From IMG/VR virus record IMGVR_UViG_3300020576_002722, positions 1 to 64,000 of that record: a stretch of DNA of 64,000 nt. One strand, written 5' to 3'. The notes beneath the pieces were generated by a model. It ran no database searches. It worked only from the letters and a program-made list of their open reading frames with translations, and was not told the origin of the DNA. Both the position numbers and the translations under genes were made by a program. This document shows, piece after piece, positions 41,011-62,012 of the stretch; the first letter of the stretch is position 1; each line of letters starts with the position of its first letter. The stretch is from a virus (lineage: Duplodnaviria > Heunggongvirae > Uroviricota > Caudoviricetes).

Positions 41011-41031
41011 GTTTGTTGGTTTGAGGTTGCG

Positions 41032-41059: not shown

Positions 41060-41060
41060 C

Positions 41061-41080
41061 ATTCGTGTGACGAATAGTTA
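41061..41080 (-). repeat. 16-nt repeat TAACTATTCGTCACAC (copy 1) forming the hairpin ATTCG-TCACA-CGAAT
   Basis: An identical 16-mer occurs at 44805-44820. Both copies lie 54-55 nt upstream of a start codon. This copy contains the TAA stop of ORF 41078..41275. Confidence 0.6.
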
Positions 41081-42400: not shown

Positions 42401-42425
42401 GTGTTCAGGGGAGTTTGATTCCGCC

Positions 42426-43941: not shown

Positions 43942-43956
43942 GTGTGTGTGTGTGTT

Positions 43957-43970
43957 GAGGATTGTACCTC
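43957..43970 (-). promoter_or_regulatory. variant hairpin GAGG-UACAAU-CCUC upstream of the ParB-like gene
   Basis: It holds the same position as the UCACAU hairpins (directly 3' of a tRNA-like element), but the loop differs. A (CA)n tract follows before the ATG. Confidence 0.35.
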
Positions 43971-43972
43971 GC

Positions 43973-44012
43973 GGGCCTCCCGGTCTCGAACCGGGAAGAC
44001 TGCCTGTGGCCC
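43973..44012 (-). ncRNA. tRNA-like element T1 (acceptor plus T-arm)
   Basis: Sense strand: GGGCC-ACAGGCAGTCTT-CCCGG-TTCGAGA-CCGGG-A-GGCCC. It starts 6 nt after the TGA at 44019. Confidence 0.5.
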
Positions 44013-44018
44013 CGTTGA

Positions 44019-44288
44019 TCAGCTGAACAGCTCGTTCTTCAGCTCTTTGAGCATGGTCAGCCCCTTCTCCAAGCTGGCCACCTCGTCGAGCGCATCAATG
44101 ATGGCCGCCCCGGACAACGGCACGGCGGACTTCAGCGTGTTCACTTTGCGCTTCGCCGATGTGAGCGCCTTTTGGGTGGCCAGGATATCGCTGTCCAGTT
44201 GCAACGCTTGCTCGGCGTCCGTCTGAGCGAACTGCTCTGCCTCCACCACCGCCTTGTCCTTTGTCAGACTTTCCAGATACTTGCCCAT
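44019..44288 (-). CDS. small coiled-coil protein (89 aa)
   Basis: The start MGKYLESLTKDK is preceded by an A/C-rich leader. The composition is coding-like. Confidence 0.55.
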   Translation of the reverse strand: MGKYLESLTKDKAVVEAEQFAQTDAEQALQLDSDILATQKALTSAKRKVNTLKSAVPLSGAAIIDALDEVASLEKGLTMLKELKNELFS

Positions 44289-44751
44289 GTTGGGTTGTTG
44301 TTTGTTTGGTGGATGCAGGTCCACCGGCCTTTATCTTCTTGAAGCGTTCGGCAAACATACGCACACCGTTGCTTATCTCTATCAGAGACGGATCTCCGTT
44401 CACTCCGACACGAATGACGATGTCCATGTGTCCGACCACAGCCCTGCTATCCCCTGACTTATCAATGACTTCCACGGTATCGCCCACCCGTATCACGTCG
44501 TCCGTCTGATGGACGCCGATGCAGAAATGGGCCAACATCTGCTCCTTGGTCACCATAGGTCTGCTGTTCTTGGCGCAGTTCTCGATGGAGTCACCAGAAA
44601 GGCCGGCTGCCCACAGCATGAATATCGGATACGTTCCATCGGCGGTAATCGAGGTCATCGATGCCCCGGCGGCCTTGATCTGTCGGATGAACTCCATCCG
44701 CTCGGCCATATCGTCGATGCGTACGGCGCATCCATCGGGTAGCTTGCTCAT
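44095..44751 (-). CDS. hypothetical protein (3' end uncertain)
   Basis: The start is MSKLPDGCAVRIDD. The frame stays open for about 190 nt into the next gene, where its translation looks non-coding (GQGGGGGRAVRSDGRR...). Confidence 0.5.
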   Translation of the reverse strand: MSKLPDGCAVRIDDMAERMEFIRQIKAAGASMTSITADGTYPIFMLWAAGLSGDSIENCAKNSRPMVTKEQMLAHFCIGVHQTDDVIRVGDTVEVIDKSGDSRAVVGHMDIVIRVGVNGDPSLIEISNGVRMFAERFKKIKAGGPASTKQTTTQHGQVSGKSDKGQGGGGGRAVRSDGRRASVATGQRYPGHPKGAHIGEAQSEHAEVRRAVVRGGHH

Positions 44752-44804
44752 GTTCCTTGTGTGTGGGCACAAAAATGGGGAACCGTTTCCGATTCCCCAA
44801 ATCT

Positions 44805-44820
44805 GTGTGACGAATAGTTA
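44805..44820 (-). repeat. 16-nt repeat TAACTATTCGTCACAC (copy 2), promoter-associated
   Basis: Identical to 41065-41080. It is followed by the hairpin GGGGAA-N10-TTCCCC and a -7-like box CATTTTTG 18 nt before the ATG at 44751. Confidence 0.55.
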
Positions 44821-44822
44821 AG

Positions 44823-45068
44823 GGCGGCCGCTCACTTCGCCCTCAGAAGGACATGCGCTTTCCGTACAGGACCAGATCGCCATTGTTGCGGATCAGGTTG
44901 CGCATGATCTCCTTCATGCGACCGGTGGGTGACTTTTTGCCATGCGTGCCAGTCCATTGTTCTACATGCCGCGCCCCGAACAGGTGCTATGACCTGTTCG
45001 CGAGCGAATGGATCCCTGACGGGGCGCGGGCTTATTGTAAGTTACGGCATTCACGAAGTACGGTCATA
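44823..45068 (-). ncRNA. candidate non-coding transcript or structured leader (about 245 nt)
   Basis: No ORF longer than 24 aa on the sense strand. It begins after the class I -7 box at 45075-45082. It contains the nested helices GCGCCCCG...[GAACAGGT-CATAGC-ACCTGTTC]-GGGGCGC (about 44952-45014) and a hairpin GCATGA-AGGAGA-TCATGC, and it ends with the hairpin GGGCG...CGCCC (44823-44843). Confidence 0.35.
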
Positions 45069-45074
45069 GCTCGG

Positions 45075-45082
45075 CAAATGTA
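45075..45082 (-). promoter_or_regulatory. class I -7 box TACATTTG
   Basis: Sense strand: TTCATACATTTGCCGAGCTATG. It lies immediately downstream of the stop at 45097. Confidence 0.45.
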
Positions 45083-45096
45083 TGAACTATTCCGAA

Positions 45097-45432
45097 TCAG
45101 TCGTTGGGGTGTTTGAACGCGTTAGGGTCCTGTCCGGGACGTGTGATCGTATTGGTGCGCAGCACGAAGGCGTACACCGCACAGCCACCCACCGGAGTAA
45201 TGATGCCGTGCGACGTTATGGTGTACCCGTGGTCGAATGCCCACCGATAGATCACATCCAGTGAGTTCTCGTCCTCCGGGGTGAACGGAACCACCTCGCT
45301 GTACTCGAACCGGGCTACCTTGATGCGGACGCGCATCCCACGGCGTTCGGTCGGCTGCATGTACGTGCCGGTGGCCACCAGTGCGTTATTCTGGTGGTTG
45401 GCCCCTCGTTGTGTCATCCTGTTCTTTCTCAT
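45097..45432 (-). CDS. hypothetical protein (111 aa)
   Basis: The start MRKNRMTQRG lies 8 nt downstream of hairpin H1. The longer track ORF runs through the RNA elements. Confidence 0.55.
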   Translation of the reverse strand: MRKNRMTQRGANHQNNALVATGTYMQPTERRGMRVRIKVARFEYSEVVPFTPEDENSLDVIYRWAFDHGYTITSHGIITPVGGCAVYAFVLRTNTITRPGQDPNAFKHPND

Positions 45433-45440
45433 TGTCGTTG

Positions 45441-45458
45441 ATGGCGATGTGACGCCAT
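45441..45458 (-). promoter_or_regulatory. conserved-loop hairpin H1 (sense AUGGCG-UCACAU-CGCCAU)
   Basis: 6-bp stem and 6-nt loop. It is one of 8 copies with an identical loop and unrelated but complementary stems. Confidence 0.7.
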
Positions 45459-45460
45459 GT

Positions 45461-45500
45461 GCGCGTCCCGGAATCGAACCGGGACGTGAACCGTTCGCGC
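45461..45500 (-). ncRNA. tRNA-like element T2
   Basis: Sense strand: GCGCG-AACGGTTCAC-GTCCCGG-TTCGATT-CCGGGAC-GCGC, then AC. It is preceded by tandem stops TAG-TAA. Confidence 0.65.
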
Positions 45501-45503
45501 TTA

Positions 45504-45752
45504 CTATTCTTCGCCCTGAGCGATGACAGGGAGTCCGTGGAACGCTATGTCGTTCCGGTATGTTTCGAGCGCCTCTGCTATCGACCTGCATTCAGCGACG
45601 ACCCCCTCGGGGGTGTGCATGATAACGCGTCGGAAGCCCCTGGTGATGGCGATGCCTCGTAGCTGGCAGGCCAGCGACAGGGTGTCCCATTTGGTCCGGC
45701 GCGGGTCCTGCTGGGACTGGTGCCGGGTCATCGAGTGGTGCGCTGTGTACAT
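45504..45752 (-). CDS. hypothetical protein (82 aa)
   Basis: The ATG overlaps the upstream stop (TGATG). Confidence 0.5.
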   Translation of the reverse strand: MYTAHHSMTRHQSQQDPRRTKWDTLSLACQLRGIAITRGFRRVIMHTPEGVVAECRSIAEALETYRNDIAFHGLPVIAQGEE

Positions 45753-45961
45753 CACTTTTCCTCGTTGTAGTGTGACTGTGCCCGTCGCAGCGCATCAGCG
45801 AAGTCCGTCTGAGCCTCATTGGTATCGCAGTAGTGCATCAGGTCGGCCAAGATGTCGCAAACCGTGTTGGCGTTGTCGTCGGCACCAAGTTCGGCCACAT
45901 ACGCATCGACCAGCTTGGCACCCATTGCCGCCCGGTCCTTGTTCGTTCTTTCGATGTCCAT
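45752..45961 (-). CDS. hypothetical acidic protein (69 aa)
   Basis: The start MDIERTNKDR follows the A/C-rich leader TCAAACCAATACCCAAAACAAC. Confidence 0.55.
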   Translation of the reverse strand: MDIERTNKDRAAMGAKLVDAYVAELGADDNANTVCDILADLMHYCDTNEAQTDFADALRRAQSHYNEEK

Positions 45962-45983
45962 GTTGTTTTGGGTATTGGTTTGA

Positions 45984-46027
45984 GCCTGCGGGCGGAATCG
46001 AACCGCCCTGAGTACTCCATTGCAGGC
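45984..46027 (-). ncRNA. tRNA-like element T3
   Basis: Sense strand: GCCTGC-AATGGAGTACTCA-GGGCGG-TTCGATT-CCGCCC-GCAGGC, then TC. It starts 8 nt after the TAG at 46036. Confidence 0.65.
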
Positions 46028-46035
46028 TGCCGGGT

Positions 46036-46461
46036 CTACGACCACTCGGTGATCAGCGCCACTTTGTCGGCGTTCAGTCCCCACGTATTCGCCCGGTCGC
46101 GGAGCCTCGACTGGACCCCTTCTACCGTGCGCGACTGTTCGTATTCCTCGCCGGGTCCATCGTGCGCCGTTTGCATGTCCACGAAGAAATTCTGCGGCAA
46201 CACCGGCAGATAGTCCTTCGCAGCTTCATACACATCATCGTTGCGTATGAATGATGTGCCGCCGGAGTTCAACATCGAATCCAGCTTGACGGCCACATTA
46301 TCCGGCAACATGCAGCCGACGGCGCAGCTTGTTCCGCCCGGTCCACGATAGGCGCACCCTGTTGCTGGTGCCATTGCCCGACGCCTCTGCTTGGCCATGT
46401 GTTCGACGATGAAGTCGAACGTTTGCTGCATGTCCATCTTCTTGATATCCTCCGTGTTCAT
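46036..46461 (-). CDS. hypothetical protein (141 aa)
   Basis: Clean ORF. The ATG lies 11 nt after hairpin H2. Confidence 0.65.
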   Translation of the reverse strand: MNTEDIKKMDMQQTFDFIVEHMAKQRRRAMAPATGCAYRGPGGTSCAVGCMLPDNVAVKLDSMLNSGGTSFIRNDDVYEAAKDYLPVLPQNFFVDMQTAHDGPGEEYEQSRTVEGVQSRLRDRANTWGLNADKVALITEWS

Positions 46462-46472
46462 TGTTCATGTGC

Positions 46473-46488
46473 GGGCAATGTGATGCCC
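46473..46488 (-). promoter_or_regulatory. conserved-loop hairpin H2 (GGGCA-UCACAU-UGCCC)
   Basis: See H1. The spacer to the ATG is GCACAUGAACA. Confidence 0.7.
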
Positions 46489-46491
46489 TGT

Positions 46492-46530
46492 GCTGCCCCC
46501 GGAATCGAACCGGGGGAGAACCATTGCAGC
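46492..46530 (-). ncRNA. tRNA-like element T4
   Basis: Sense strand: GCTGC-AATGGTTCTC-CCCCGG-TTCGATT-CCGGGG-GCAGC, then AC. It starts immediately after the TAA at 46531. Confidence 0.65.
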
Positions 46531-47022
46531 TTACAGGTCGAGTGCGTCGATGCGCCCCACCATCTTGCGGGCCTTGGCGATGTCGCCCACCGTGGCCGTG
46601 CAGTGTACCAGATGCTCGGTGAGCACCTCGATCATGTCGCGGGCCTCGCGCAGCACACCGGACACCGTCTCGAAGTCCACGGGGACATCTTCGGACTCTT
46701 CCATCCATGCCGTCTCCACATACTGCTGCTGGCCGTACGTGATCACGCCCAAGCTCACCAAGAGCTTCAGCGCGTCGTGGATGTTGTTGAAGCCCCTGAT
46801 GGCCTGCACTCGTCCATCCACGCTGCCGTACACGGTCCAGAACACGCTGTTTGCTGGCGCATCCTCTGGAGGCTCGACGCCGTTGAGCGGTTGCGTATCG
46901 GTGCCGTCATCCATGCACAGGGAAAGCTCGTACGAGTTGAATGTACCGACATTGGAGGTGTCCTTCGTGAACAGCCACCGGTCGGGGCGCTTCTCGTCGT
47001 GCATCCGTTCTACTTTGGTCAT
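46531..47022 (-). CDS. hypothetical protein (163 aa)
   Basis: The start MTKVERMHDE lies 11 nt after hairpin H3. Confidence 0.65.
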   Translation of the reverse strand: MTKVERMHDEKRPDRWLFTKDTSNVGTFNSYELSLCMDDGTDTQPLNGVEPPEDAPANSVFWTVYGSVDGRVQAIRGFNNIHDALKLLVSLGVITYGQQQYVETAWMEESEDVPVDFETVSGVLREARDMIEVLTEHLVHCTATVGDIAKARKMVGRIDALDL

Positions 47023-47033
47023 TGGTTCATGGT

Positions 47034-47051
47034 AGCGCAATGTGATGCGCT
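47034..47051 (-). promoter_or_regulatory. conserved-loop hairpin H3 (AGCGCA-UCACAU-UGCGCU)
   Basis: Identical in sequence to H8. The spacer to the ATG is ACCAUGAACCA. Confidence 0.7.
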
Positions 47052-47121
47052 GGTGGAGCCGGGGGAATCGAACCGCCCGCGAATGCGCTCTACTTGCTGC
47101 GCAAGGGTACCATAGCTCCAC
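47051..47121 (-). ncRNA. tRNA-like element T5 (69 nt, D-arm-less, encoded A-CCA end)
   Basis: Sense strand: GGAGCTA-TGGTACCCT-TGCGC-AGCAAGTAGA-GCGCA-TTCGCG-GGCGG-TTCGATT-CCCCC-GGCTCC-A-CCA. It has an extra hairpin with a 10-nt loop in place of an anticodon arm, and one C:C mismatch in the T-stem. Confidence 0.55.
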
Positions 47122-47128
47122 GCCTTCT

Positions 47129-47884
47129 TCACGATAGCCTGTTGGCGCTCGATGTTGCACCGGACACCGGCCTATTGAAATTCACATTGTCTCCAGCAGA
47201 ACGACCGGAGTTGTAGGCATCCCTGCTTCCTGCGTGTCTGCGGCTTGTCGTGGTCCGCAGCTTCACCCCAAGGTCGCCCAGATACTTCTTGTACTTCTGG
47301 ACGGTCACATTGCTCTTCACGACCATAATGGCCGTGCATGAGTTGCCCTCTGCCGCCTTTCGCTCTGCCACCATGCGACGTAGTCGTTCGGCGATACGTG
47401 ATCCCATGCCGAGCATGAACGAGGCACGCAGAGTACGACCGTGCATACTGGTACCGCCATCTCGTTTGAGGCGCTTCAATTCAGCCTGCTTCAGCTTCCA
47501 CGCCTGCTCCATAGCTCCCTGTATCATGTCGCACAGGTAGAAGGCCATCTCGGTGTCTTTGGCGGTTCCGAAGTATAGCATTTCGCCGTTGTACCACTTC
47601 GTCACCTTGGTATCGGTGAACTCGGAAATGGCAACGGAGCACGAGTTTACCACCTCAGGCCACCTGTTCATATTCACGCCCGTGGCGTACGGACGCTTTC
47701 GGGCACCGTACTGGTCACCCATGATGGACGCCTCGTCCATAGTGATGTTGTATTCGCGGATAAGGGAGTCCAACTTCTGTGCTGCCGCGATGGCCTCTGC
47801 CTCAGTGCAACCGTTGCTAACGGTACGCGCCTGAAGCTCCCGGATGATGCGGGCTATCCGCTCCCGATTAACGTTCTGTTCCAT
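47129..47884 (-). CDS. DUF2786-like protein (251 aa)
   Basis: The N-terminus ERIARIIRELQARTVSNGCTEAEAIAAAQKLDSLIREYNI resembles the DUF2786 helix pair common in phage and plasmid proteins, recalled from memory. Confidence 0.65.
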   Translation of the reverse strand: MEQNVNRERIARIIRELQARTVSNGCTEAEAIAAAQKLDSLIREYNITMDEASIMGDQYGARKRPYATGVNMNRWPEVVNSCSVAISEFTDTKVTKWYNGEMLYFGTAKDTEMAFYLCDMIQGAMEQAWKLKQAELKRLKRDGGTSMHGRTLRASFMLGMGSRIAERLRRMVAERKAAEGNSCTAIMVVKSNVTVQKYKKYLGDLGVKLRTTTSRRHAGSRDAYNSGRSAGDNVNFNRPVSGATSSANRLS

Positions 47885-47895
47885 TGTTCATGTGT

Positions 47896-47913
47896 ATACC
47901 CATGTGAGGGTAT
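47896..47913 (-). promoter_or_regulatory. conserved-loop hairpin H4 (AUACCC-UCACAU-GGGUAU)
   Basis: The spacer to the ATG is ACACAUGAACA. Confidence 0.7.
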
Positions 47914-47915
47914 TG

Positions 47916-47972
47916 GAACGGTGGATGGTGTCGATCCATCAGCACGCGTGCTCACCGGCCGGGGCACCGTTC
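47916..47972 (-). ncRNA. tRNA-like element T6 (divergent)
   Basis: Sense strand: GAACGGTG-CCCCGGCCGGTG-AGCACGCGTGCT-GATGG-ATCGACA-CCATC-CACCGTTC. It has an 8-bp closing stem, and the T-loop departs from the TTCGA consensus. Confidence 0.45.
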
Positions 47973-47977
47973 AGGTA

Positions 47978-48370
47978 TTACATTAGGCCCAGACCACGCA
48001 GGGCGCTCATATCCTTGTCGAAGCTCGCCGGCCACTTCACCGTGGACAGGTCGCGCACGAACGTCGACGCCTCCGCGTCAAGGAACAGGCACCCACCGAT
48101 GGACACCTTGAATGGGTTCGGTTGCAGCCCGTTCCACGCTGCGAACGCCAGAGGGTCACTCATGGCGCTCGGAGCCTTCTTCAGTAGCCGCATGTGCTTC
48201 TGTGGCCCGACCTTGTAGAAGGCCCTCTGGATGGCGTCCAGATGCGTCTGCGGGATGTCGCACCCGTGCTGCGCCTTGTGGATGTCCTTGGCCACGTTCT
48301 GGGCCAGTTGCAGTGCGGTCATACGTTGGACCTTGTCGGCGTGCTCTGCGTACGCCTTCGCTGTGCTCAT
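47978..48370 (-). CDS. hypothetical protein (130 aa)
   Basis: Clean ORF with the A/C-rich leader AAACCAATACAACCACAGAACA. Confidence 0.65.
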   Translation of the reverse strand: MSTAKAYAEHADKVQRMTALQLAQNVAKDIHKAQHGCDIPQTHLDAIQRAFYKVGPQKHMRLLKKAPSAMSDPLAFAAWNGLQPNPFKVSIGGCLFLDAEASTFVRDLSTVKWPASFDKDMSALRGLGLM

Positions 48371-48394
48371 TGTTCTGTGGTTGTATTGGTTTGT

Positions 48395-48434
48395 GCCCGC
48401 CGTGGAATCGAACCACGGCGTGAACCGTTCGGGC
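48395..48434 (-). ncRNA. tRNA-like element T7
   Basis: Sense strand: GCCCG-AACGGTTCAC-GCCGTGG-TTCGATT-CCACGGC-GGGC, then AC. Its first G is the G of the upstream TAG stop. The linker is identical to T2 while both stems differ by compensatory changes. Confidence 0.65.
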
Positions 48435-48538
48435 TACTGGTCGGCCAGTGTCTGGTCGTCGGGCCGCTGTTGCGACCGCTTCTGTTCAGCCTTGCGGCGT
48501 TCGTGCTCTTCGCGGAGCACCTGTGTGTAGTGCGTCAT
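48434..48538 (-). CDS. possible micro-ORF (34 aa)
   Basis: The sequence MTHYTQVLREEHERRKAEQKRSQQRPDDQTLADQ starts 2 nt after the upstream stop. The rest of track ORF 48434..48697 overlaps the previous gene. Confidence 0.3.
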   Translation of the reverse strand: MTHYTQVLREEHERRKAEQKRSQQRPDDQTLADQ

Positions 48539-48540
48539 AG

Positions 48541-48765
48541 TCAGTTCAGGGTGAGTCGTGGTACTACAACGAAGGCCCCCAGTTCCCGGTGGAACACGTA
48601 GCGTGCCCCGATAGTGGAGCACAGGCATACACGGCCCTCGGCCATCAGTACCCGTGCATAGGTGGGCACCTTGTCGATGGGGTCGAGTCGTAGGCACCCG
48701 TCTATCAGGTGCCCGTCAAGGTCGTGGGCCAGCGCTGCGGCCCGCTCTTGGTCCTTGGTATTCAT
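48541..48765 (-). CDS. hypothetical protein (74 aa)
   Basis: The ATG lies 10 nt after hairpin H5. Confidence 0.55.
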   Translation of the reverse strand: MNTKDQERAAALAHDLDGHLIDGCLRLDPIDKVPTYARVLMAEGRVCLCSTIGARYVFHRELGAFVVVPRLTLN

Positions 48766-48775
48766 TCGTCAGTGG

Positions 48776-48793
48776 ACGGCAATGTGATGCCGT
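48776..48793 (-). promoter_or_regulatory. conserved-loop hairpin H5 (ACGGCA-UCACAU-UGCCGU)
   Basis: The spacer to the ATG is CCACUGACGA. Confidence 0.7.
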
Positions 48794-48796
48794 TGT

Positions 48797-48838
48797 GCGC
48801 GGGCAGGGAGTCGAACCCCGCCCTCGGACCATCCGCGC
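48797..48838 (-). ncRNA. tRNA-like element T8
   Basis: Sense strand: GCGC-GGATGGTCCGA-GGGCGGGG-TTCGACT-CCCTGCCC-GCGC, then AC. It starts 2 nt after the TAA at 48841. Confidence 0.6.
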
Positions 48839-48840
48839 TG

Positions 48841-49122
48841 TTACTTCCACACTTCCGCCACCACCTCAGGTGGCGCATCCTCGGTCGCCCTGCACATTTC
48901 CCAACCAGTGGTGCTCAGGATGGCTTGGCCGTACTTCTCGTCGCACTTGACACTGACCACTTGCCCTTGGTGTACCGGGTTGGACCCATAGGCCGACGGA
49001 TACGCCTCAAAAGCCTCGCCATCGCGAGCTATCAGGATGGCGTGCCTCAGGCCGAACGAATTGGTGTTGGTGGACAAGATGGCCACCTTGAACTCCTTAC
49101 GGAGCATGGATGTCTGGTTCAT
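48841..49122 (-). CDS. hypothetical protein (93 aa)
   Basis: The start MNQTSMLRKEF is at the ATGA overlap with the small zinc-ribbon ORF. Confidence 0.55.
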   Translation of the reverse strand: MNQTSMLRKEFKVAILSTNTNSFGLRHAILIARDGEAFEAYPSAYGSNPVHQGQVVSVKCDEKYGQAILSTTGWEMCRATEDAPPEVVAEVWK

Positions 49123-49268
49123 CGCTTTGCTGGTGTTGGTTTCTTCTCGGTGTAGAACATCATCCCGCACTGGTAGCAGCGGAAATGGATGATGGTGCCC
49201 ATGAGTCCCATAGGCGCGTTGGTCGTGCTGCACATGGGGCAGCTACGGCGTACTCGTTGCCATGCCAT
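49119..49268 (-). CDS. small zinc-ribbon protein (49 aa, below the track cutoff)
   Basis: Hand translation: MAWQRVRRSCPMCSTTNAPMGLMGTIIHFRCYQCGMMFYTEKKPTPAKR (CPMC...CYQC). The ATG lies 10 nt after hairpin H6. Confidence 0.45.
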   Translation of the reverse strand: MAWQRVRRSCPMCSTTNAPMGLMGTIIHFRCYQCGMMFYTEKKPTPAKR

Positions 49269-49278
49269 TGTCTGTTGG

Positions 49279-49294
49279 TCGCAATGTGATGCGA
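49279..49294 (-). promoter_or_regulatory. conserved-loop hairpin H6 (UCGCA-UCACAU-UGCGA)
   Basis: The spacer to the ATG is CCAACAGACA. Confidence 0.7.
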
Positions 49295-49297
49295 TGA

Positions 49298-49342
49298 TCG
49301 CTGTCTGGACTCGAACCAGATGTCCCGCCTATCGGGCAGCGA
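49298..49342 (-). ncRNA. tRNA-like element T9 (acceptor, D-arm-like hairpin and T-arm)
   Basis: Sense strand: TCGCTG-[CCCG ATAGG CGGG]-ACA-TCTGG-TTCGAGT-CCAGA-CAGCGA, then TC. Confidence 0.55.
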
Positions 49343-49376
49343 AGGGTGCGCTACGTCCTTGGTGGCGCGGTATTGG

Positions 49377-49763
49377 TCAGCCTTGGTTCACCGGCTGAAG
49401 GTGTGCGTTCAGTGTGCGGCCATCGGGCATCAGGAAGAATTGCGGGTTGAACTCGCCCCACTTCTCAGCTTGCGGGCCAACGAGGTAGCCCTTGCCGCCC
49501 CGGTTCCAGTACACGGCGATGGCCTCTTGTCCGAGGGTTTCAGACAACCGGTGGACAAGTGTCTCTTCAACGGCATTCCACCCGGCAGCGCCAACCTCCA
49601 CTACCATCGTCGGTTCGGTGTTGCTGTTTATCGGGCCGTGAAAGGTGAGCGGAGCGTGGATGCCTGTGTCGGTCGGATACGTCCTTCGCACCGCATCCAT
49701 TACCTGTTCTACGGTATTGGTTCCGCCGTCCGGCCTGTTGAGGCCGATGTTGAGTGTGAACAT
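49377..49763 (-). CDS. hypothetical protein (128 aa)
   Basis: The start MFTLNIGLNRP is chosen 9 nt after hairpin H7, by analogy with the other units. An in-frame ATG inside the hairpin (49790) is possible. Confidence 0.6.
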   Translation of the reverse strand: MFTLNIGLNRPDGGTNTVEQVMDAVRRTYPTDTGIHAPLTFHGPINSNTEPTMVVEVGAAGWNAVEETLVHRLSETLGQEAIAVYWNRGGKGYLVGPQAEKWGEFNPQFFLMPDGRTLNAHLQPVNQG

Positions 49764-49772
49764 TGCTTGGGG

Positions 49773-49790
49773 ATGTCCATGTGAGGACAT
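49773..49790 (-). promoter_or_regulatory. conserved-loop hairpin H7 (AUGUCC-UCACAU-GGACAU)
   Basis: The spacer to the ATG is CCCCAAGCA. Confidence 0.7.
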
Positions 49791-49792
49791 TG

Positions 49793-49860
49793 TGGACCGT
49801 ACGGGAGTCGAACCCGCCGTCAAACCCCACCCGGGGCGGCCCTGTATTGCTCCACGGCTC
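49793..49860 (-). ncRNA. tRNA-like element T10 (about 68 nt, non-canonical core)
   Basis: Sense strand: GAGCCGT...CCCCGGGTGGGG...-GCGGG-TTCGACT-CCCGT-ACGGTCC-A-C. The acceptor has 7 bp with one mismatch. The D and anticodon regions cannot be drawn canonically. Confidence 0.45.
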
Positions 49861-49877
49861 AGTACGTCTTTTGAGGG

Positions 49878-50114
49878 TCAAGCTGCGTCGGGCCCTGAAG
49901 GCATTTCTACCACTTCCTCGTCCCATGTTTCTACCTCGGCCTCGGTGTCTTGGGTGAACTTACCCACGTCTGCAAGGTATTCCGCGCCTGCGGCAAGATT
50001 CTCCTTCAGTTCTTGGATGGATGCCCCGTTCATGGTGTATTCCACCTCGATAGTCAGTCTCAGTTTAGCGGTCTTCATGTTCGTGCTATGCTTAGCGCTT
50101 GTCTTGATATCCAT
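49878..50114 (-). CDS. hypothetical acidic protein (78 aa)
   Basis: The first gene of the small-gene block. The ATG lies 9 nt after hairpin H8. Confidence 0.6.
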   Translation of the reverse strand: MDIKTSAKHSTNMKTAKLRLTIEVEYTMNGASIQELKENLAAGAEYLADVGKFTQDTEAEVETWDEEVVEMPSGPDAA

Positions 50115-50123
50115 GGCCTTGAT

Positions 50124-50141
50124 AGCGCAATGTGATGCGCT
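50124..50141 (-). promoter_or_regulatory. conserved-loop hairpin H8 (AGCGCA-UCACAU-UGCGCU)
   Basis: The most upstream copy. No full tRNA-like element precedes it, only the hairpin CCGGG-AGCGATG-CCCGG at about 50148-50170. Confidence 0.7.
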
Positions 50142-50659
50142 GCCTGTCCACCGGGCATCGCTCCCGGACCTCGTTGGCGGTTAATTACTCCGCCACGTTG
50201 CGCTTCATTAGCTGAACAGGTTGTGCGATGTTTCCGTTATCGTGCATCGCCTCACTGGCCCTTTCATGAGGTGGAGCCATACCCGGTGGCGCATTACGGT
50301 GCGCTCTACCTGCGCCCCCTATCCCGCATCGAAGCGGGTGGCCACGTAGTGACGGTGGTCGCGTCCTGCTAGGGGGTATAGTTCCAAGATGTCAAAGAAC
50401 GCGCTCTAGGTCACACCGCACCGTGTTTCTCGGTACAGTCCCGTTCCCAGCGGCCTTCCTACGGGCCATCGCGGCTAGTAGTTTCGGCACCACATCATGT
50501 GGCTGCTGGTCAGTGCGTTACGTGTGAAAGAACGACGCCTAGCTTGGTGGCCCTCACGGGTGACTGTTGCCGAACGCGATGCAAGTGTAGGCTGCCGCAT
50601 GGCCACCGACCTAATTTCCAGTGACGAACGGTTGGGAACGGGACGAACGGTTGGCCAGA

Positions 50660-50890
50660 CTAGGTGGCTTGATCGCCTGGAGGCCGCGATACTGTAGGCC
50701 AGAACGACATCTTGTAGCCAAGTAGCTGCAAATAGGCTTGGAGCGTAGACATGGACGTGGTAAGCACGTTGGCTTCGAGCCTGGCCACGGTCACTGGCTT
50801 CACCCCGATGCGTTCGGCCACGTCCGCTTGTGACCACCCGAGCCGCCTGCGTTTGGCGATCACAAAGTTGTCCATCTTGCGCCTGGCCAT
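50660..50890 (-). CDS. XRE/Cro-CI-family helix-turn-helix regulator (76 aa)
   Basis: The sequence is MARRKMDNFVIAKRRRLGWSQADVAERIGVKPVTVARLEANVLTTSMSTLQAYLQLLGY. A class I -7 box lies 4 nt upstream of the ATG, which predicts a leaderless transcript. The N-terminal extension in the track is not credible. Confidence 0.75.
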   Translation of the reverse strand: MARRKMDNFVIAKRRRLGWSQADVAERIGVKPVTVARLEANVLTTSMSTLQAYLQLLGYKMSFWPTVSRPPGDQAT

Positions 50891-50894
50891 GCCC

Positions 50895-50902
50895 CAAAGG
50901 TA
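50895..50902 (-). promoter_or_regulatory. class I -7 box TACCTTTG (CTTACCTTTGGGGC-ATG)
   Basis: Four nt separate the box from the HTH gene's ATG. Confidence 0.5.
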
Positions 50903-51158
50903 AGCGGCCACGCGGATACGGTGATCACGCTGCCCATGCGATAGCGATAGGAGCGGATAGCCCGCAGCCCGAAGGGCGAGGACTATGAGCGGATAGCGCG
51001 GGCCGAAGGCATCGCCCAAAGGATGGAAGCACTCTACTACAAGAGAGAGAACATGCTGGTGATCAGGCTGTTGGACCGGTAACACGTAGACACATAGCCA
51101 TATCACTATGTGTAAGCCCTTTCTCGGGGACAATAGGTGAACGCGTGCGCGTGGTGAT

Positions 51159-51386
51159 CTGGTGGCTGATCTTGGGTAGTGGTGGCCATGTTGGGGACTA
51201 TCCCCACGCCCACGACATTAAAAGGCCCACCAGTCAAGGCTTTCCACTCAAACGCGTGCCCATACACGTACACCCCTCAAAGGGCTCACCCCTCACACAC
51301 TGGTGGCCAGAGACAAGGTGGCCAGTGATCAGGTTTGACCTGTTATTGGTGGCCCAGACTAGGATCCCTTTTCACTTTGTGGCCCC
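51159..51386. repeat. cluster of GGTGGCC(A/C) repeats in the divergent control region
   Basis: Copies lie at about 51161, 51181, 51302, 51317, 51349 and 51379 (TGTGGCC). Further copies, some inverted, lie at 50547, 50599 (ATGGCCACC), 50651 and 50664. Confidence 0.55.
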
Positions 51387-51412
51387 GATCGAGGCGACCC
51401 GTTTCCCTTTTT

Positions 51413-51442
51413 GGGAGGCCAGGGGGGAGGGCAAGGGGGGGG
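51413..51442 (+). other. G-quadruplex-type G-tract motif including a G8 homopolymer
   Basis: GGG-AGGCCA-GGGGGG-A-GGG-CAA-GGGGGGGG. Confidence 0.4.
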
Positions 51443-51566
51443 AGTCCCCCAAATTCAGATATACCGGGCACCCCTTTTCAGGCAAGCCAGGGGGTATCCG
51501 CCCCATACCGGTACCTGCTTGTATCGAATTTCATGATCAAAGCGAAACACATCCCAGGAGTTGTAT

Positions 51567-51574
51567 TACATTTG
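51567..51574 (+). promoter_or_regulatory. class I -7 box TACATTTG (TTACATTTGCGGGCAT)
   Basis: It lies 18 nt upstream of the ATG at 51593. The 16-nt context is identical to the copy at 52060-52075. Confidence 0.55.
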
Positions 51575-51592
51575 CGGGCATAAACGATACAC

Positions 51593-51820
51593 ATGACTAT
51601 AGACACACTGATCATCGCAGCCTGGGCCACCGCCTCCCTTGGTGTGTTCGCCTATGGCGTGCAGGAGATCCTCTTGGATGGGGGCGAGGATGACTTCGGG
51701 AACAAGATGAGGCACCGGATCGACATCCCTCTGCTCATGGCTACCACCTGGCCACTATGGTGCCTTGTCGTGTGGCCGGCTGAGGCTATCACATGGATCT
51801 GGAAAAAGCTGGTACGATGA
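51593..51820 (+). CDS. small membrane protein (75 aa)
   Basis: Two hydrophobic segments. Confidence 0.55.
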   Translation: MTIDTLIIAAWATASLGVFAYGVQEILLDGGEDDFGNKMRHRIDIPLLMATTWPLWCLVVWPAEAITWIWKKLVR

Positions 51821-52035
51821 GCCCAGTATCACGAGCAGCCTACCAGAGGTACCTCAGGTGGGACAAGAACCCGATCGCCAAGAGAACGGTCGGCCGCCTG
51901 TCGGTCTGCTTCATCCGTGGCCTGGATGACGAGGCCAAGAAGTTCGTGCCAGCCACCCGGTACCGGAACCTGGAGAACGAGGTGGCCACACTGAACGGAT
52001 GGAACCTCGGCCCGGTCCAACCATCCATCACTTAG
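51817..52035 (+). CDS. hypothetical protein (72 aa)
   Basis: The start MSPVSRAAYQ is at the ATGA overlap. Confidence 0.5.
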   Translation: MSPVSRAAYQRYLRWDKNPIAKRTVGRLSVCFIRGLDDEAKKFVPATRYRNLENEVATLNGWNLGPVQPSIT

Positions 52036-52060
52036 CACTTGCACTATCAGAAATGGCGCT

Positions 52061-52068
52061 TACATTTG
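52061..52068 (+). promoter_or_regulatory. class I -7 box TACATTTG (CTTACATTTGCGGGC-ATG)
   Basis: It lies 5 nt before the ATG at 52074. Confidence 0.5.
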
Positions 52069-52073
52069 CGGGC

Positions 52074-53063
52074 ATGAGTCTGAACGAGTACCTGCGACAG
52101 AAGGTCCATTACATCCGCAAACAACGGAAACAGCTTCCGAACGACGCCTGGCACATGGACGATAGCACTCGTCAACAGATGCGCGACATCATCAGTGACC
52201 TTGGGGCACTGCAAGATATTCAGGCCGGCAGGCGCAAGGTGCTTCCTGGTGTCGTCGACAGGACCAAGAGTGGACCTATTGCGCACCCGGATGAATACGG
52301 ACCCGTGATCTATCGGTACGACGGGGTCGTCTATCGCCGGAAGAACGGAGTCACCACCGCCCTTGTTGAGCTGGATGAGACGATCAAGTGCGACGGATGC
52401 AACGTCTACCCAAACCAAGAAACCAACAACACACACATGGTAAGCCAAAGCAAGATCGATGAGGCCAAGTCCAGGGGTATTGTACCTGGAGCAACGATCA
52501 AGTGCGCATCGGTTCCCGACAGGTACGGCGTGGTCATGCCCACCTCGTACTGGAGGACAACGAGTGGCGGGGCTATCGATGTCGGCCTCGACAACAAGGG
52601 CACACAACTGTTCGCCTACTCCGGAGTGTTCAACAAGTGGTCCGAAGTGATCACCCTGGCACCGCCACCCATCGGGCTCCAGCCACAGGACGCCGTGAAG
52701 GCATCAGGGGCAATGCTCGCCGCCATCGCCGACAGGGCCGCCGAACTCGGGCTTCTCGACAGGAAGTTCGCGGGTGAGAACGGATCCGACTACCTGAATA
52801 GCGTGTCGGTACACTGGGACCCGACATGCTATTGCCCACTCCAGGTCGGCCACACACACGTCAAGCATAACCTTCTGACGCCGGACGAGTTCCTCCGTCG
52901 CCTGGAGAGCACGGTGTTGCAGCCTGTCACCAAGATCACAGAGCCGCGCATTGGCCGCGATCTTGAGCACACGGTCAAGTTCAACAAGGGCTCCATCACC
53001 GTTGGACGCACGACCGTTCCCAATGAAACCGTCCGCAAGATCGCGGCAAACCTCAAGGACTGA
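52074..53063 (+). CDS. hypothetical protein (329 aa)
   Basis: The start MSLNEYLRQK is chosen downstream of the promoter box. Alternative ATGs lie at 52053 and 51999. Confidence 0.6.
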   Translation: MSLNEYLRQKVHYIRKQRKQLPNDAWHMDDSTRQQMRDIISDLGALQDIQAGRRKVLPGVVDRTKSGPIAHPDEYGPVIYRYDGVVYRRKNGVTTALVELDETIKCDGCNVYPNQETNNTHMVSQSKIDEAKSRGIVPGATIKCASVPDRYGVVMPTSYWRTTSGGAIDVGLDNKGTQLFAYSGVFNKWSEVITLAPPPIGLQPQDAVKASGAMLAAIADRAAELGLLDRKFAGENGSDYLNSVSVHWDPTCYCPLQVGHTHVKHNLLTPDEFLRRLESTVLQPVTKITEPRIGRDLEHTVKFNKGSITVGRTTVPNETVRKIAANLKD

Positions 53064-53248
53064 TGACCTACCACATCGTTCAAGCGCTTGCCCTGGCCGT
53101 GGCCCTGTGGCTATCCGGTAACTACGTCGGCAACCTGGCTGTGGCTATCAAGGAGCACAGCAATGTTGCTGTGTCAAAGGCCAATATCAGCCTGCGGCTA
53201 TCAGCCATAGCGTGGGCCATATTCTGGTACATGTCATGGGGACACTGA
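53063..53248 (+). CDS. small membrane protein (61 aa)
   Basis: TGATG overlap with the upstream stop, and two TM segments. Confidence 0.5.
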   Translation: MTYHIVQALALAVALWLSGNYVGNLAVAIKEHSNVAVSKANISLRLSAIAWAIFWYMSWGH

Positions 53249-53439
53249 GACTGTTCCTCCTGTGCGTGGCCGGGTTCTCGCTCATCCTGTGGCTGGCAGA
53301 GTCTATCGATCAGCGGGCCACTATGGGCAGGAATCGCGTATACGTAGACCGAAGTACGTACGAGCCTGCCATAATGAGACCCATCTGGTGGGCAGCGGTA
53401 GCCATTGTGTCGACCTGCGCAGCCTATGCGCTTTCATGA
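53236..53439 (+). CDS. small membrane protein (67 aa)
   Basis: MGTLRLFLLCVAGFSLILWL... and a C-terminal TM segment. Confidence 0.5.
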   Translation: MGTLRLFLLCVAGFSLILWLAESIDQRATMGRNRVYVDRSTYEPAIMRPIWWAAVAIVSTCAAYALS

Positions 53440-53731
53440 GCTGATCCTCGTGGCCCTGGCGGCTGCATCGATCGGATACCAGCTGACGGATTTCGGGATC
53501 ATGTGGGAGGACGAGTTCCACATGATCCCGCCCGCTCGTCTATTGATACACGAGCCCCGTCGAACTTCATTGCCGTTCTACCATCCAGAGGCTACCTTTG
53601 TGAGGAGGAGATCTATCAGAAGGTCTTCTGTCCGAAAAAACGAGGATGAAATACTGGATCGCGTTCATCGTTGCTCTCTTCTGCCTGGACTCGTGCGCCC
53701 AGAGGTTGATGAGGAGCCACCTGGTTGGTGA
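53426..53731 (+). CDS. possible small membrane protein (doubtful 3' part)
   Basis: MRFHELILVALAAASIGYQL looks real. The Arg-rich tail overlaps the next gene. Confidence 0.3.
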   Translation: MRFHELILVALAAASIGYQLTDFGIMWEDEFHMIPPARLLIHEPRRTSLPFYHPEATFVRRRSIRRSSVRKNEDEILDRVHRCSLLPGLVRPEVDEEPPGW

Positions 53732-54026
53732 CTCTACCTCCAAGTGCATCCTGGTGATCAGGGACATGGACTCCTATGGCGATCCGAAGGCGTACGAGTT
53801 CCGCAAGTACAACGCCTTCAACCTGAAGCCCGGTGACTACCTGATCGGGTACTTCATCGACACCGGCTTCGTACACACCGAGATCATGCACGTCTCCCAC
53901 GAGAAGAGCGTGCAGGACCAGTTCATCCTGATCCGTCCGGTTCCACTCCACAAGGTGCGCTTCGCGCCTGCTGACAACGGGGACTCCACATCGTTCTTCT
54001 TTGATCTCGATTACCTGGACCCATGA
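53646..54026 (+). CDS. lipoprotein (126 aa)
   Basis: Signal plus lipobox: MKYWIAFIVALFCLDSC. Confidence 0.6.
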   Translation: MKYWIAFIVALFCLDSCAQRLMRSHLVGDSTSKCILVIRDMDSYGDPKAYEFRKYNAFNLKPGDYLIGYFIDTGFVHTEIMHVSHEKSVQDQFILIRPVPLHKVRFAPADNGDSTSFFFDLDYLDP

Positions 54027-54107
54027 AACGAATGACCCTCTTCATCAACGAGGGGTTCGCCACTGCGGTAGCGATCCTTCTGATGGTTCTGTTCTGCTGA
54101 CAGTGGG

Positions 54108-54115
54108 TACCTTTG
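54108..54115 (+). promoter_or_regulatory. class I -7 box TACCTTTG (GGTACCTTTGCGGT-ATG)
   Basis: Four nt separate the box from the ATG at 54120. Confidence 0.5.
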
Positions 54116-54119
54116 CGGT

Positions 54120-56063
54120 ATGGCAACCCGCACCGGTACGATCTTCGTCCTGAACTTCGACCCAAGGCCAGTGCCATCGGGTGACATCTGGATCGAGGTT
54201 CCGGGTGAGTACGACCAGGCCACCAACACCCGCAGGTTCAAGTTCAAGGTCGGCACCGGGCAGACCGCTTACAAGTATCTCCCGTACGGGCTGATCGGAG
54301 AGGAGACCGCCGCGCCGGCATCGACCGGCGGCAACATGGTCGGTCCCGCGTCGAGCACCGACAACGCACTGGTCCGATGGGACGGCACCACCGGTAAGCT
54401 GACCCAGAACTCGGTCATCGTCGTCTCTGACCTGGGAGCCATCACCGGGATCCTGTCGCTGAACGGGAACACGTTCGGGCCTACCCCAGGGGTACTGATC
54501 GTCCAGGGCAACGCGCTCACCCTCCTGTCGTCCGGGGCAGCCGCCGCAGGCCAGGTGGCTACCGCCGATGGGGCCGGCAACATCACATGGGTAACACCGA
54601 CAGCTGGGACAGGAGACGTCGTTGGACCGGCATCCGCCGTAGATGGCCACATCGTACAGTTCGACGGGGTAACCGGTAAGCTGATCAAGGACGGCCTGGC
54701 GACGTCCGCCGGCGGGAACGGTACGGCCGACTCCGGGAAGGTCCCTGTGTTCGGCGCTGACGGAAGCCTGTCAGTGGCCAATACAGGAGGCTCCGGATCA
54801 GCTCTGCTGGCCACGTCCGACGTTGCCTTCTTGCCCGCCGTGAACGCACTCAGCAATGGGAGCGGGCCGGCCGGCGCATTCTACAACAGCTCCACCGGCG
54901 ACGGGGTCAACGCATCGGTGAACGACGGGTACGCCGTATTCGGACTGAACGACTCGATAACGGCACCCGCTGGCCACTTCCAGAACGTGGACCCCACGAA
55001 GACTGGGGACCTTGGGCAGTTCCACAATGCCGATGACGACGGGCTCATCATCGAGAACGACGGTGGCCTCGACTGGACGACCCCTACTGGAGCGCAGTCA
55101 ACGGCCACCAATCTGCCCGTGTTCAGTGCTCTCAAGAAGGGAGTCGTGCCGGCGGCCGGCGCAGTACCATCGGCCACCAAGTTCCTGGACGAGACCGGGG
55201 CCTGGGCAGTTCCTCCGGACACCGATACCGGGATCACCCAGCTCACTGGAGATGTCACGGCTGGGCCTGGAAGTGGATCGCAGGCAGCTACGCTCGCCTC
55301 CGTCATCACGGCTGGTGGGCCGACGGGTAGCGCTTCGGTCGTCCCGGTCATCACCTATGACGCCAAGGGGAGGTTGACCGCCGTGTCCACGGCAACCATT
55401 ACACCTGCCGCTATCGGCGCTCCGGCCGGGTCAGGTACAAGTACAGGAACGAATACCGGGGACCAGACCAACATCTCCGGGAACGCGGCAACCGTTACCA
55501 CCAACGCCAACCTCACCGGCCCGGTCACGTCGGTAGGTAACGCCACCACGATCGCGGACCCAGAGCTGGCGGCTATCGCAGCCCTGACAAGCGCAGCGGA
55601 CAAGACCATCCAGTTCACTGGATCCGGAACGGCGGCACTGGTGAACTTGAAGGAGGGTCCGGAAGCGGCCTACACTGGAACGATCACATGGACAGCCGGA
55701 GCGGCCCCGTCTGGAGCGTCGTCACTCAGGCAGTTCTATACACAGGTCGGCAACCAGGTGTCGTGGCAGATCAGCTTGACGTACGCCAACACCGGAACTA
55801 CCGTAACGAACGTAGTGTTGACCTTCCCCACTGAATTCCCGACACCCGCGATACCATCAGGCTTCACGGGTGCCAGCGTTCGCCTGTACAGTTGCGACAA
55901 CGTACGCTTGTTGAGTACGCCCACCGGCTCGCTCGCTAATGCAACGGGCTTCTTCGTGATGCGGAACGCGGCTGATACCGGGTTCGATATCAAGAGCACT
56001 GGTACGTTCGCATCCGGATCCTATCGCACGTTCATCTTCGGTGGAACATATTTCACCTCCTGA
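54120..56063 (+). CDS. second tail fibre protein
   Basis: 647 aa. The repeated motifs are MVGPASSTDNALVRWDGTTGKLTQNS and VVGPASAVDGHIVQFDGVTGKLIKDG. The sequence is Gly/Thr/Ala-rich, and the segment KKGVVPAAGAVPSATKFLDETGAWAVP is fibre-like. Confidence 0.8.
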   Translation: MATRTGTIFVLNFDPRPVPSGDIWIEVPGEYDQATNTRRFKFKVGTGQTAYKYLPYGLIGEETAAPASTGGNMVGPASSTDNALVRWDGTTGKLTQNSVIVVSDLGAITGILSLNGNTFGPTPGVLIVQGNALTLLSSGAAAAGQVATADGAGNITWVTPTAGTGDVVGPASAVDGHIVQFDGVTGKLIKDGLATSAGGNGTADSGKVPVFGADGSLSVANTGGSGSALLATSDVAFLPAVNALSNGSGPAGAFYNSSTGDGVNASVNDGYAVFGLNDSITAPAGHFQNVDPTKTGDLGQFHNADDDGLIIENDGGLDWTTPTGAQSTATNLPVFSALKKGVVPAAGAVPSATKFLDETGAWAVPPDTDTGITQLTGDVTAGPGSGSQAATLASVITAGGPTGSASVVPVITYDAKGRLTAVSTATITPAAIGAPAGSGTSTGTNTGDQTNISGNAATVTTNANLTGPVTSVGNATTIADPELAAIAALTSAADKTIQFTGSGTAALVNLKEGPEAAYTGTITWTAGAAPSGASSLRQFYTQVGNQVSWQISLTYANTGTTVTNVVLTFPTEFPTPAIPSGFTGASVRLYSCDNVRLLSTPTGSLANATGFFVMRNAADTGFDIKSTGTFASGSYRTFIFGGTYFTS

Positions 56064-61993: not shown

Positions 61994-62012
61994 CTGTCGT
62001 TAACATGACCCT

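Follow-up and report, generated by a model that had tools for sequence, protein, structure and literature searches.

The window analysed here, 64,000 nucleotides (nt) of an uncultured phage (positions 1 to 64,000 of IMG/VR record IMGVR_UViG_3300020576_002722, Caudoviricetes), changes its direction of transcription at 50891-51592, between a leftward gene for a Cro/CI-type helix-turn-helix (HTH) protein and a set of rightward genes. On comparative sequence evidence this interval is a non-coding divergent control region; it is a phage early control region, ordinary in kind. In the account of it that we regard as marginally probable, a leftward sigma-70-like promoter, a hairpin leader and a G-rich block are the working parts, and the recurring word GGTGGCC is background. 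A control region had been called here by an earlier, sequence-only reading, and the strand switch, the long non-coding stretch beside a Cro/CI-type gene and the conserved non-coding elements support it. That reading also took the short repeats for an operator array or a replication origin, and here no iterons, no repeated half-site and no specific origin evidence were found.

Conservation was judged against metagenome contigs. Close relatives (L003-L012, drawn from several metagenomes) were found by exact-protein look-up with the 75-amino-acid (aa) product of 51593-51820 and are 92-96% identical across 50300-52100; eight such contigs and the window make up a close group of nine sequences. A distant relative, L013, was found through its 81%-identical HTH protein and aligns to 50455-51468 at 68.5% identity. 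All statements on conservation rest on the eight close contigs and L013 and have limited statistical power. The lineage is rare: protein searches with the HTH protein and a 128-aa neighbour returned only four and three clusters, and a scan of JGI metagenomes with a 23-nt invariant island gave no match.

The interval is the exact strand-switch point between the leftward and rightward gene blocks. No open reading frame (ORF) in 50912-51592 passes the codon model, and indels among the relatives are not multiples of three. Most close relatives have 112-114 open codons in the HTH frame upstream of its ATG, and gene callers on related contigs lengthen the HTH ORF to 99-119 aa; in L003 and L013 the frame ends after 16 and 14 codons, respectively. 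These closed frames, and the non-conservative changes in the implied peptide, led to rejection of the idea that the HTH protein has an N-terminal extension encoded across the hairpin region. The ATG at 50890 is the conserved HTH start, kept in L013. The absence of a credible ORF, as first noted from the letters, is thus borne out by the codon model and by the lack of a conserved upstream extension. The interval is made up of short islands conserved in L013 (68% identity overall) between variable cassettes.

Leader hairpins, candidate promoter and G-rich block

Two copies of GAGCGGATAGC had been pointed out as paired motifs. Both are exact, at 50951-50961 and 50987-50997 (one base from where they had been placed), but they are not independent sites; they are the arms of one hairpin, H1, which is followed by a mini-hairpin, H2 (Table 1). 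A third copy, at 47853 on the minus strand, lies within a gene. Across H1 and H2, 96% of cells in the alignment are paired and 6/22 pairs have changed on both sides; no shuffle out of 500 was as good, and slid controls gave 0-2. In three close-group alleles and in L013 the helices persist with both partners of a pair changed: A-U has become C-G, C-G at the apex has become G-C and, in H2, G-C has become C-G. In L005 and L012 the lower stem is rebuilt as AUCCC/GGGAU. By this covariation, the base pairing of H1 and H2 is real. All 22 pairs form on the minus strand and 21 on the plus strand, one U.G pair favouring the former, and the GAGCGGATAGC hairpin probably lies in the leader of the HTH messenger RNA (mRNA).

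The candidate promoter stands upstream of these hairpins and is the only site on either strand of the interval with at least 8/12 consensus matches. Its orthologous site in L013, TTGTCC-17-TATAGT, reaches 9/12 and is the only match of a consensus scanner there; both hexamers and their spacing are kept in L013 while the spacer sequence has diverged. Leftward transcription would start near 51098 from TTGTCC-17-CATAGT and, if this promoter is real, the HTH mRNA would have a leader of ~205 nt that carries H2, H1 and with it both GAGCGGATAGC copies. H1 may act in RNA as a stabilising element or as one for RNase III-type processing.

Among the structured elements of phage early mRNAs, in leaders and between cistrons, are the RNase III R-sites of T7 and the CUUCGG-type intercistronic hairpins of T4. 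H1 resembles these in being an imperfect stem of ~19 bp with a very stable small loop, placed upstream of the first early gene and showing compensatory change. It is unlike them in that its symmetric stem ends in a 3-nt UUC/GAA loop and not in the canonical C(UUCG)G tetraloop, and its role in processing or stabilisation is putative.

Two sequence features at the promoter are candidate regulator sites: the inverted repeat ACACATAG-N8-CTATGTGT over the -10 and start, and the invariant near-palindrome ACGCG-TG-CGCGT, which lies inside the island GGGACAATAGGTGAACGCGTGCGCGTG just upstream of the -35. In L013 only ATAG-N8-CTAT (51094-51109) is kept of the inverted repeat. A conserved helix of ACACATAG with CTATGTGT was rejected, given that the outer pairs break in L013; what is kept is kept as sequence. 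Farther upstream, the TTGGGGACTATCCCCACGCCCACGACAT island includes the DnaA-box-like CTATCCCCA.

The G-tract at 51413-51442 is exactly as the sequence-only reading described it, and it is conserved in L013. Its G4Hunter score of 2.60 is the maximum of the window, it holds the window's only homopolymer of at least 7 bases, and it is one of two canonical G-quadruplex motifs in 64 kb (four G-runs of at least 3, loops of 1-7 nt). All relatives keep the four G-runs apart from L003, where 14 nt are deleted. The last run varies from G6 to G9, mostly through A/G substitutions. A single clean +1 G (in L006) and the L003 deletion are what speaks for its proposed role as a potential G8 slippage site, the other length differences being substitutions. 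Contigs L008 and L011 begin at window positions 51400 and 51435, just before and within the G-tract. These starts and the L003 deletion could reflect an artefact of assembly or sequencing at poly-G, or real instability.

In every allele the plus strand of the G-rich block folds ~10 kcal/mol better than the minus strand, and the consensus fold contains three helices, P1 to P3. Four conserved G-runs, short loops and the top G4Hunter score of the window are what the block shares with G-quadruplex elements of promoters and leaders; it differs from these in that a duplex with the conserved pyrimidine tract is just as compatible. A predicted plus-strand duplex with that upstream tract and a G-quadruplex are equally possible. 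In either form, 51366-51450 would lie in the leader of the rightward operon or upstream of it, where it may have a function.

Several points tell against this account of promoter, leader and block. The candidate promoter matches 8/12 positions of a sigma-70 consensus that may not be that of the host; at a threshold of 9/12, above this site, the scanner found no promoter in the window. The last T of its -10 is C (CATAGC) in 5/9 close relatives (L003, L005, L009, L010 and L012). The choice of strand for H1 turns on one wobble pair, and a DNA cruciform, or a hairpin of single-stranded DNA with a C-GAA-G loop, would fit the covariation of H1 equally well. H1 is represented by only five distinct sequences, the alleles being those of a few recombining lineages. 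The helices of the G-rich block show only one-sided changes, U.G to C.G, which are consistent with structure and not proof of it. The interval taken whole folds barely better than its shuffles (z = -1.8 for the plus and -1.6 for the minus strand), and on these scores the idea that it is one large structured RNA was rejected. For helices besides H1, H2 and those of the left-hand gap described below, the sliding consensus fold is too noisy. No Rfam family matches at E <= 1 over 49800-52000, and Rfam gathering scores in the window are reached only by transfer RNAs (tRNAs).

The word GGTGGCC

At least six copies of GGTGGCC(A/C) had been counted in the interval. Exact copies of GGTGGCC number only four, at 51181, 51302, 51317 and 51348, and a count of six needs the one-mismatch forms GGTGGCT at 51161, TGTGGCC at 51378 and an inverted GGTGGGC at 51225. 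The further copies reported on the other side of the HTH gene, some of them inverted, are present, exact ones lying at 50337 (+), 50546 (+) and 50601 (-). Four exact copies compare with 0.65 expected, and four or more are found in 1.1% of 702-nt windows; a scan statistic for four copies in 200 nt gives P = 0.04. With one mismatch allowed there are 11 matches where 5.6 are expected, a count equalled or exceeded in 6.9% of 702-nt windows.

GGTGGCC is the second commonest heptamer of the window, with 59 copies, and forms the top two together with GTGGCCA. Dinucleotide shuffles, which predict 13 copies genome-wide, strongly overstate its significance; the excess is misleading because GGTGGCC is a top-ranking heptamer, and the signal disappears once codon phase and a Markov model are taken into account. 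A maximal-order Markov model puts the word at rank 10099, without enrichment, and 25/31 genic copies on the sense strand stand in the phase xxG-GTG-GCC. Ten of the 59 copies are intergenic where intergenic DNA makes up 19% of the sequence, so that there is no intergenic enrichment. No consensus extends past the 7 nt, and its spacing is irregular (21, 121, 15, 31 and 30 nt).

Conservation of the copies is likewise poor. Only one of the four exact copies, that at 51302, is kept in L013, and two others are replaced in 6/9 sequences of the close group, where 51317 and 51348 read GGTCGAC and GTGCGCC. The variable cassette of 51323-51400 surrounds the conserved TAGGATCCCTTT. A helix of the copy at 51181 with the inverted copy at 51225 was considered and rejected; it forms in the close group only and is broken in L013.

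By these controls, the copies of GGTGGCC are compositional background and not arrays of binding sites, and their proposed standing as iterons or operators falls with that. A dispersed word under selection, like a stoperator or Chi, was rejected for the same lack of flanking consensus and of Markov enrichment, and for the codon phase. The stoperators of cluster A mycobacteriophages are 13-nt sites of L5 gp71. GGTGGCC resembles them as a short asymmetric word dispersed in the genome and mostly co-oriented with transcription; it is unlike them in being 7 nt long, in having no conserved flanks, in being codon-phased within genes and in showing neither intergenic nor Markov enrichment.

A different word recurs nearby. 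GGCC(C)AGACTAGG is found twice, at 50655-50664 over the HTH stop codon and at 51354-51363 before TAGGATCCC; the right-hand copy is missing in the alternative allele of the cassette. AGACTAG is among the most Markov-over-represented heptamers of the window (2 observed against 0.2 expected), and both copies are in this locus.

Operators, origin or small RNA

It is conceivable, if rather doubtful, that the interval is an operator array in which several sites are bound by the HTH protein, or by a different regulator of the phage, to set early transcription both ways, as in lambdoid immunity regions, the operators being the conserved palindromes and not GGTGGCC. An HTH_3 gene abuts the interval, and palindromic islands are kept in L013: ATAG-N8-CTAT over the -10, ACGCG-TG-CGCGT by the -35, GGGGACTATCCCC and TACCGGTA. 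This arrangement is compatible with the promoter, leader and block account and partly contained in it. However, no half-site recurs among the palindromes, each of which is different and unique in the window, unlike the operators of lambda, P22 and L5; GGTGGCC fails as an operator word; and one promoter-like site is present, not a divergent pair. No second repressor or integrase is found in the window, and so there is no sign of an immunity switch.

The likeness to the lambdoid cI-OR-cro region, with PRM and PR, is in the small Cro/CI-type HTH gene at a divergent junction that heads early operons, and in palindromes that overlap a promoter-like site. The lambdoid regions are ~80-100 nt long and this interval is ~700 nt; it differs also in that the window is without a repeated operator family, a partner repressor or an integrase, and in that hairpins and the G-rich block fill much of its length.

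A replication origin is considerably less probable. In such an origin the hairpins and the TATCCGC words (CTATCCGCT against TTATCCACA, degenerate and DnaA-box-like) would recruit the DnaA-domain-IV-like protein, the helicase and primase would be loaded nearby, and the C-GAA-G hairpins would act as structures of single-stranded DNA. Mini-hairpins with a GAA loop closed by C-G are very stable DNA hairpins and occur in some phage origins (the d(GCGAAGC) literature), and this counts for an origin. TATCCGC (reverse complement GCGGATA) also clusters locally: the interval has 4 of the 15 copies in the window where 0.16 would be expected, and a scan statistic on TATCC[GC]C, a word picked post hoc, comes to P ~0.0025. 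Among the genes of the phage are those for a Bac_DnaA_C protein, a DnaB helicase and a Zn-ribbon/DUF6371 protein, and no non-coding stretch at a strand switch is larger than the interval.

Against this, the TATCCGC copies are lost or mutated among close relatives (GCGAAGA in four sequences, GCGGCAT in two), two copies are explained as helix arms, and 12-15 kb separate the interval from the replication genes. Neither the interval nor the surroundings of the initiator and helicase genes yielded an iteron array with regular spacing, and TRF and a repeat finder gave only weak two-copy rows; the canonical DnaA box TTWTNCACA has 0 matches in 64 kb; and by inspection the interval holds no AT-rich unwinding element, its lowest-GC stretches being ~40-45% GC. 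Cumulative GC skew, a check that the sequence-only reading had proposed for the complete genome, was run on the 64-kb window and does not turn at 51 kb, and the sign change of the AT skew follows the direction of transcription. Origins with iterons (lambda ori, P1 oriR, iteron plasmids) are alike in having short repeats in a non-coding region of a genome with genes for a helicase and an initiator-like HTH protein; the interval differs from them in having no phased 17-22-bp iterons, no AT-rich element and no DnaA boxes, and in not lying in or next to an initiator gene.

There is just as little to commend free-standing genes for small non-coding RNAs, whether one or several (a plus-strand RNA at ~51360-51450 would be an example), in place of mRNA leaders: the plus-strand folding advantage is strand-specific, the block is conserved at 68% background identity and the neighbouring transcript is rich in structured RNAs, but Rfam gives no match even at E = 1, no flanking pair of promoter and terminator was found, the G-block helices show no compensatory double changes and the whole-interval z-scores are weak.

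RNA elements of the leftward operon and the genome setting

The HTH gene has long gaps on both sides, and the left one, 50115-50659, is downstream of it in the same transcript. This gap reads as a structured RNA region, with a folding z of -3.5 on the minus (transcribed) strand. A hairpin of GNRA type, CCC-GUGA-GGG (50551-50560), covaries there, CCC/GGG being replaced by GCG/CGC around an unchanged GUGA loop. The GGTGGCC copy at 50546-50552 overlaps this hairpin, and the copy at 50601 is its inverted partner within the inverted repeat 50540-50552/50601-50613, in the same variable cassette.

A non-coding stretch of 180 nt, 50361-50540, is invariant in 9/9 sequences of the close group, in which the HTH coding sequence varies at many sites. 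It borders a cassette, 50543-50625, that has three to four recombining alleles. L013 carries the "allele 2" form of this cassette, so the alleles predate the split of the lineages.

The dispersed repeats of the leftward operon are tRNA-like minihelices without an anticodon, at least seven of them, on the minus strand in intergenic gaps. Each has an acceptor-type stem of 5-7 bp, a D-loop-like linker of ~12 nt with GG (AAYGGUUC...), a perfect T-arm with a UUCGANU loop and a 3' acceptor strand that is usually followed by ACA. Neither ARAGORN nor the Rfam tRNA model calls them, and Rfam gives only a weak mascRNA-like match. Built on five of them, a covariance model picked up two further full-length ones; with filters off, it found none in 50115-51592. 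Copies are also present in the relatives, one of them 100% identical in L013 against a background of ~70-77%. Among 10 distinct copies, in an alignment fitted to the model, 98% of cells are paired and 8/10 pairs have changed on both sides.

A second small hairpin, GCAUCACAUUGC, has a UCACAU loop on a stem of GCA/UGC and flanking pairs. It occurs five times in perfect form, each time shortly upstream of a leftward gene. It usually comes directly after a minihelix, and most minihelices have one; 12 nt separate the last copy from the start of the gene 49878-50114. The minihelix family suggests RNA-processing punctuation of the early operon, with the minihelices as candidate signals for RNase P/Z.

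Since the HTH transcript has other covarying RNA elements downstream, namely the left-gap hairpins and the minihelices, control at the level of RNA would fit this operon. A broader proposal, which we advance tentatively and think may well not hold, is that early expression is organised mainly at the RNA level. The H1/H2 leader and the structured gap would flank the HTH gene, and ~6 kb of small early genes would be punctuated by minihelices that act as processing or stabilising signals for RNase P/Z (or the CCA enzyme), in a mitochondrion-like "tRNA punctuation" of which the interval is the transcriptional head.

The phage is uncultured and, by the searches made, matches no known family. The window has a G+C content of 57.6%. 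Searches with megablast, blastn and tblastn found no close relative among isolated phages, the best helicase matches being ~24% identical, and there is no close relative in IMG/VR, where scans with the HTH protein, a 336-aa neighbour and two conserved DNA islands led only to spurious or unrelated loci (L001, L002, L014 and L015). The HTH_3 gene is the first gene of a leftward operon of ~20 kb, in which small genes and replication genes then follow; the rightward operon beyond the interval consists of unknown genes, the first of which starts at 51593. Pfam and family matches confirm the gene calls made from the sequence, that is, the HTH protein and, all leftward, the DnaA-domain-IV-like, helicase and Zn-ribbon/DUF6371 proteins.

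Five giant ORFs (1116, 554, 2753, 1159 and 434 aa; 46-19095, plus strand) have essentially no Pfam or PHROG matches. No PHROG family was found for the giant structural ORFs, the 2753-aa protein included, and those scanned with Pfam, the 2753-aa protein not among them, gave nothing informative. An N4-like virion RNA polymerase with hairpin promoters was considered and is unsupported by these scans, which for the 2753-aa protein were of PHROG only. A cluster of four tRNAs lies at 24379-25142 on the plus strand (Phe, Asn, Gly and one without a determined anticodon), and a lone tRNA-Arg(CCU) at 38688-38760 on the minus strand directly adjoins the DnaA-C-like gene. A T-arm-like repeat, GTCGAACCAGG, is found at ~38794-38804, 91 nt from this locus. 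At 61201-63976 on the minus strand there is a set of genes for salvage of nicotinamide adenine dinucleotide (NAD) and for phosphoribosyl pyrophosphate (PRPP). It comprises NAPRTase/NAMPT-family genes seemingly split in two ORFs (61201-61845 and 62622-63452), the two NAMPT-like pieces being separated by a 776-nt uncalled gap, and a ribose-phosphate pyrophosphokinase-like gene (63449-63976).

Table 1. Features of the interval, its flanks and the wider gene map, by position in the window
Feature	Position	Strand	Basis or remark
Rightward genes	46-30618	+	Codon-model gene map; includes giant ORFs without family
Leftward block	31102-50890	-	Codon-model gene map
Rightward genes	51593-56063	+	Codon-model gene map
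Mostly leftward genes	after 56063	mostly -	Codon-model gene map
Zn-ribbon/DUF6371 protein gene	35241-36314	-	Family search
DnaB-type helicase gene	36407-37642	-	Family search
DnaA-domain-IV-like protein gene	37947-38687	-	Bac_DnaA_C 5.6e-8
HTH_3 (Cro/CI-type) gene, 76 aa	50660-50890	-	Pfam HTH_3 7.3e-12; PHROG transcriptional regulator
tRNA-like minihelices	43970-44012, 45458-45500, 45981-46027, 46489-46530, 48392-48434, 48794-48838, 49791-49832	-	
T-arm alone	49304-49320	-	
GCAUCACAUUGC hairpins	46475-46486, 47037-47048, 48779-48790, 49281-49292, 50127-50138	-	Variant at 45444-45455
Second long non-coding gap	50115-50659	-	Structured RNA region downstream of HTH gene, same transcript
Island CCCAAAGGTAAGCGG	next to HTH start		Conserved in L013; unique in window
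Hairpin H1, 56 nt, ~19 bp with internal loops, apex GCCC-UUC-GGGC (plus strand: GAA)	50943-50998	-	Consensus fold
Mini-hairpin H2, GCC-UUC-GGC	51002-51010	-	CCC-UUC-GGG in L013; pair 20-28 GC to CG, pairing kept
Inverted repeat ACACATAG-N8-CTATGTGT	51091-51114		Over candidate -10 and start; possible operator
Candidate sigma-70-type promoter: -35 TTGTCC (51133-51128), 17-nt spacer, -10 CATAGT (51110-51105)	51105-51133	-	Predicted start ~51098
Invariant island GGGACAATAGGTGAACGCGTGCGCGTG	51127-51153		One base differs in L013; unique in window
Same island, as GGGACAATAGGTGNACGCGTGCGCGT	51127-51152		Conserved in L013; unique in window
Invariant island TTGGGGACTATCCCCACGCCCACGACAT with GGGGA-CTA-TCCCC hairpin/palindrome	51191-51218		Conserved in L013; unique in window
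Same island, as TTGGGGACTATCCCCAC...GACAT	51191-51218		Conserved in L013; unique in window
CACTGGTGGCCAGAGACAAGG with GGTGGCC 51302	51299-51322	+	Sole GGTGGCC copy kept in L013
Variable cassette	51323-51400		Two alleles in close group, third in L013; holds 51317/51348 copies in window allele
Island TAGGATCCCTTT	51360-51371		Conserved in L013; unique in window
Helix P1: pyrimidine tract CCCUUUYC with GGGGGAGGG	51366-51373 with 51423-51430	+	Consensus fold
Helix P2: UUUCCC with GGGAGG		+	Consensus fold
Helix P3: GGGGG-AGU-CCCCC		+	Consensus fold
G-rich block TTCCCTTTTTGGGAGGCCAGGGGGGAGGGCAAGGGGGGGGAGTCCCCC	51402-51450	+	Whole block conserved in L013
Island GTACCGGTACCTG	51505-51517		Conserved in L013; unique in window

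The result is mostly corrective, in that an apparent array of iterons or operators is a background word. The map that remains consists of a covarying leader hairpin, one promoter candidate conserved in position, invariant islands and a unique, conserved G-rich block. The minihelix family is more unusual than the interval itself and, if its members are processing signals, would represent an unusual organisation of polycistronic early mRNA for a phage. In a phage lineage with almost no recognisable proteins, such a map is useful.

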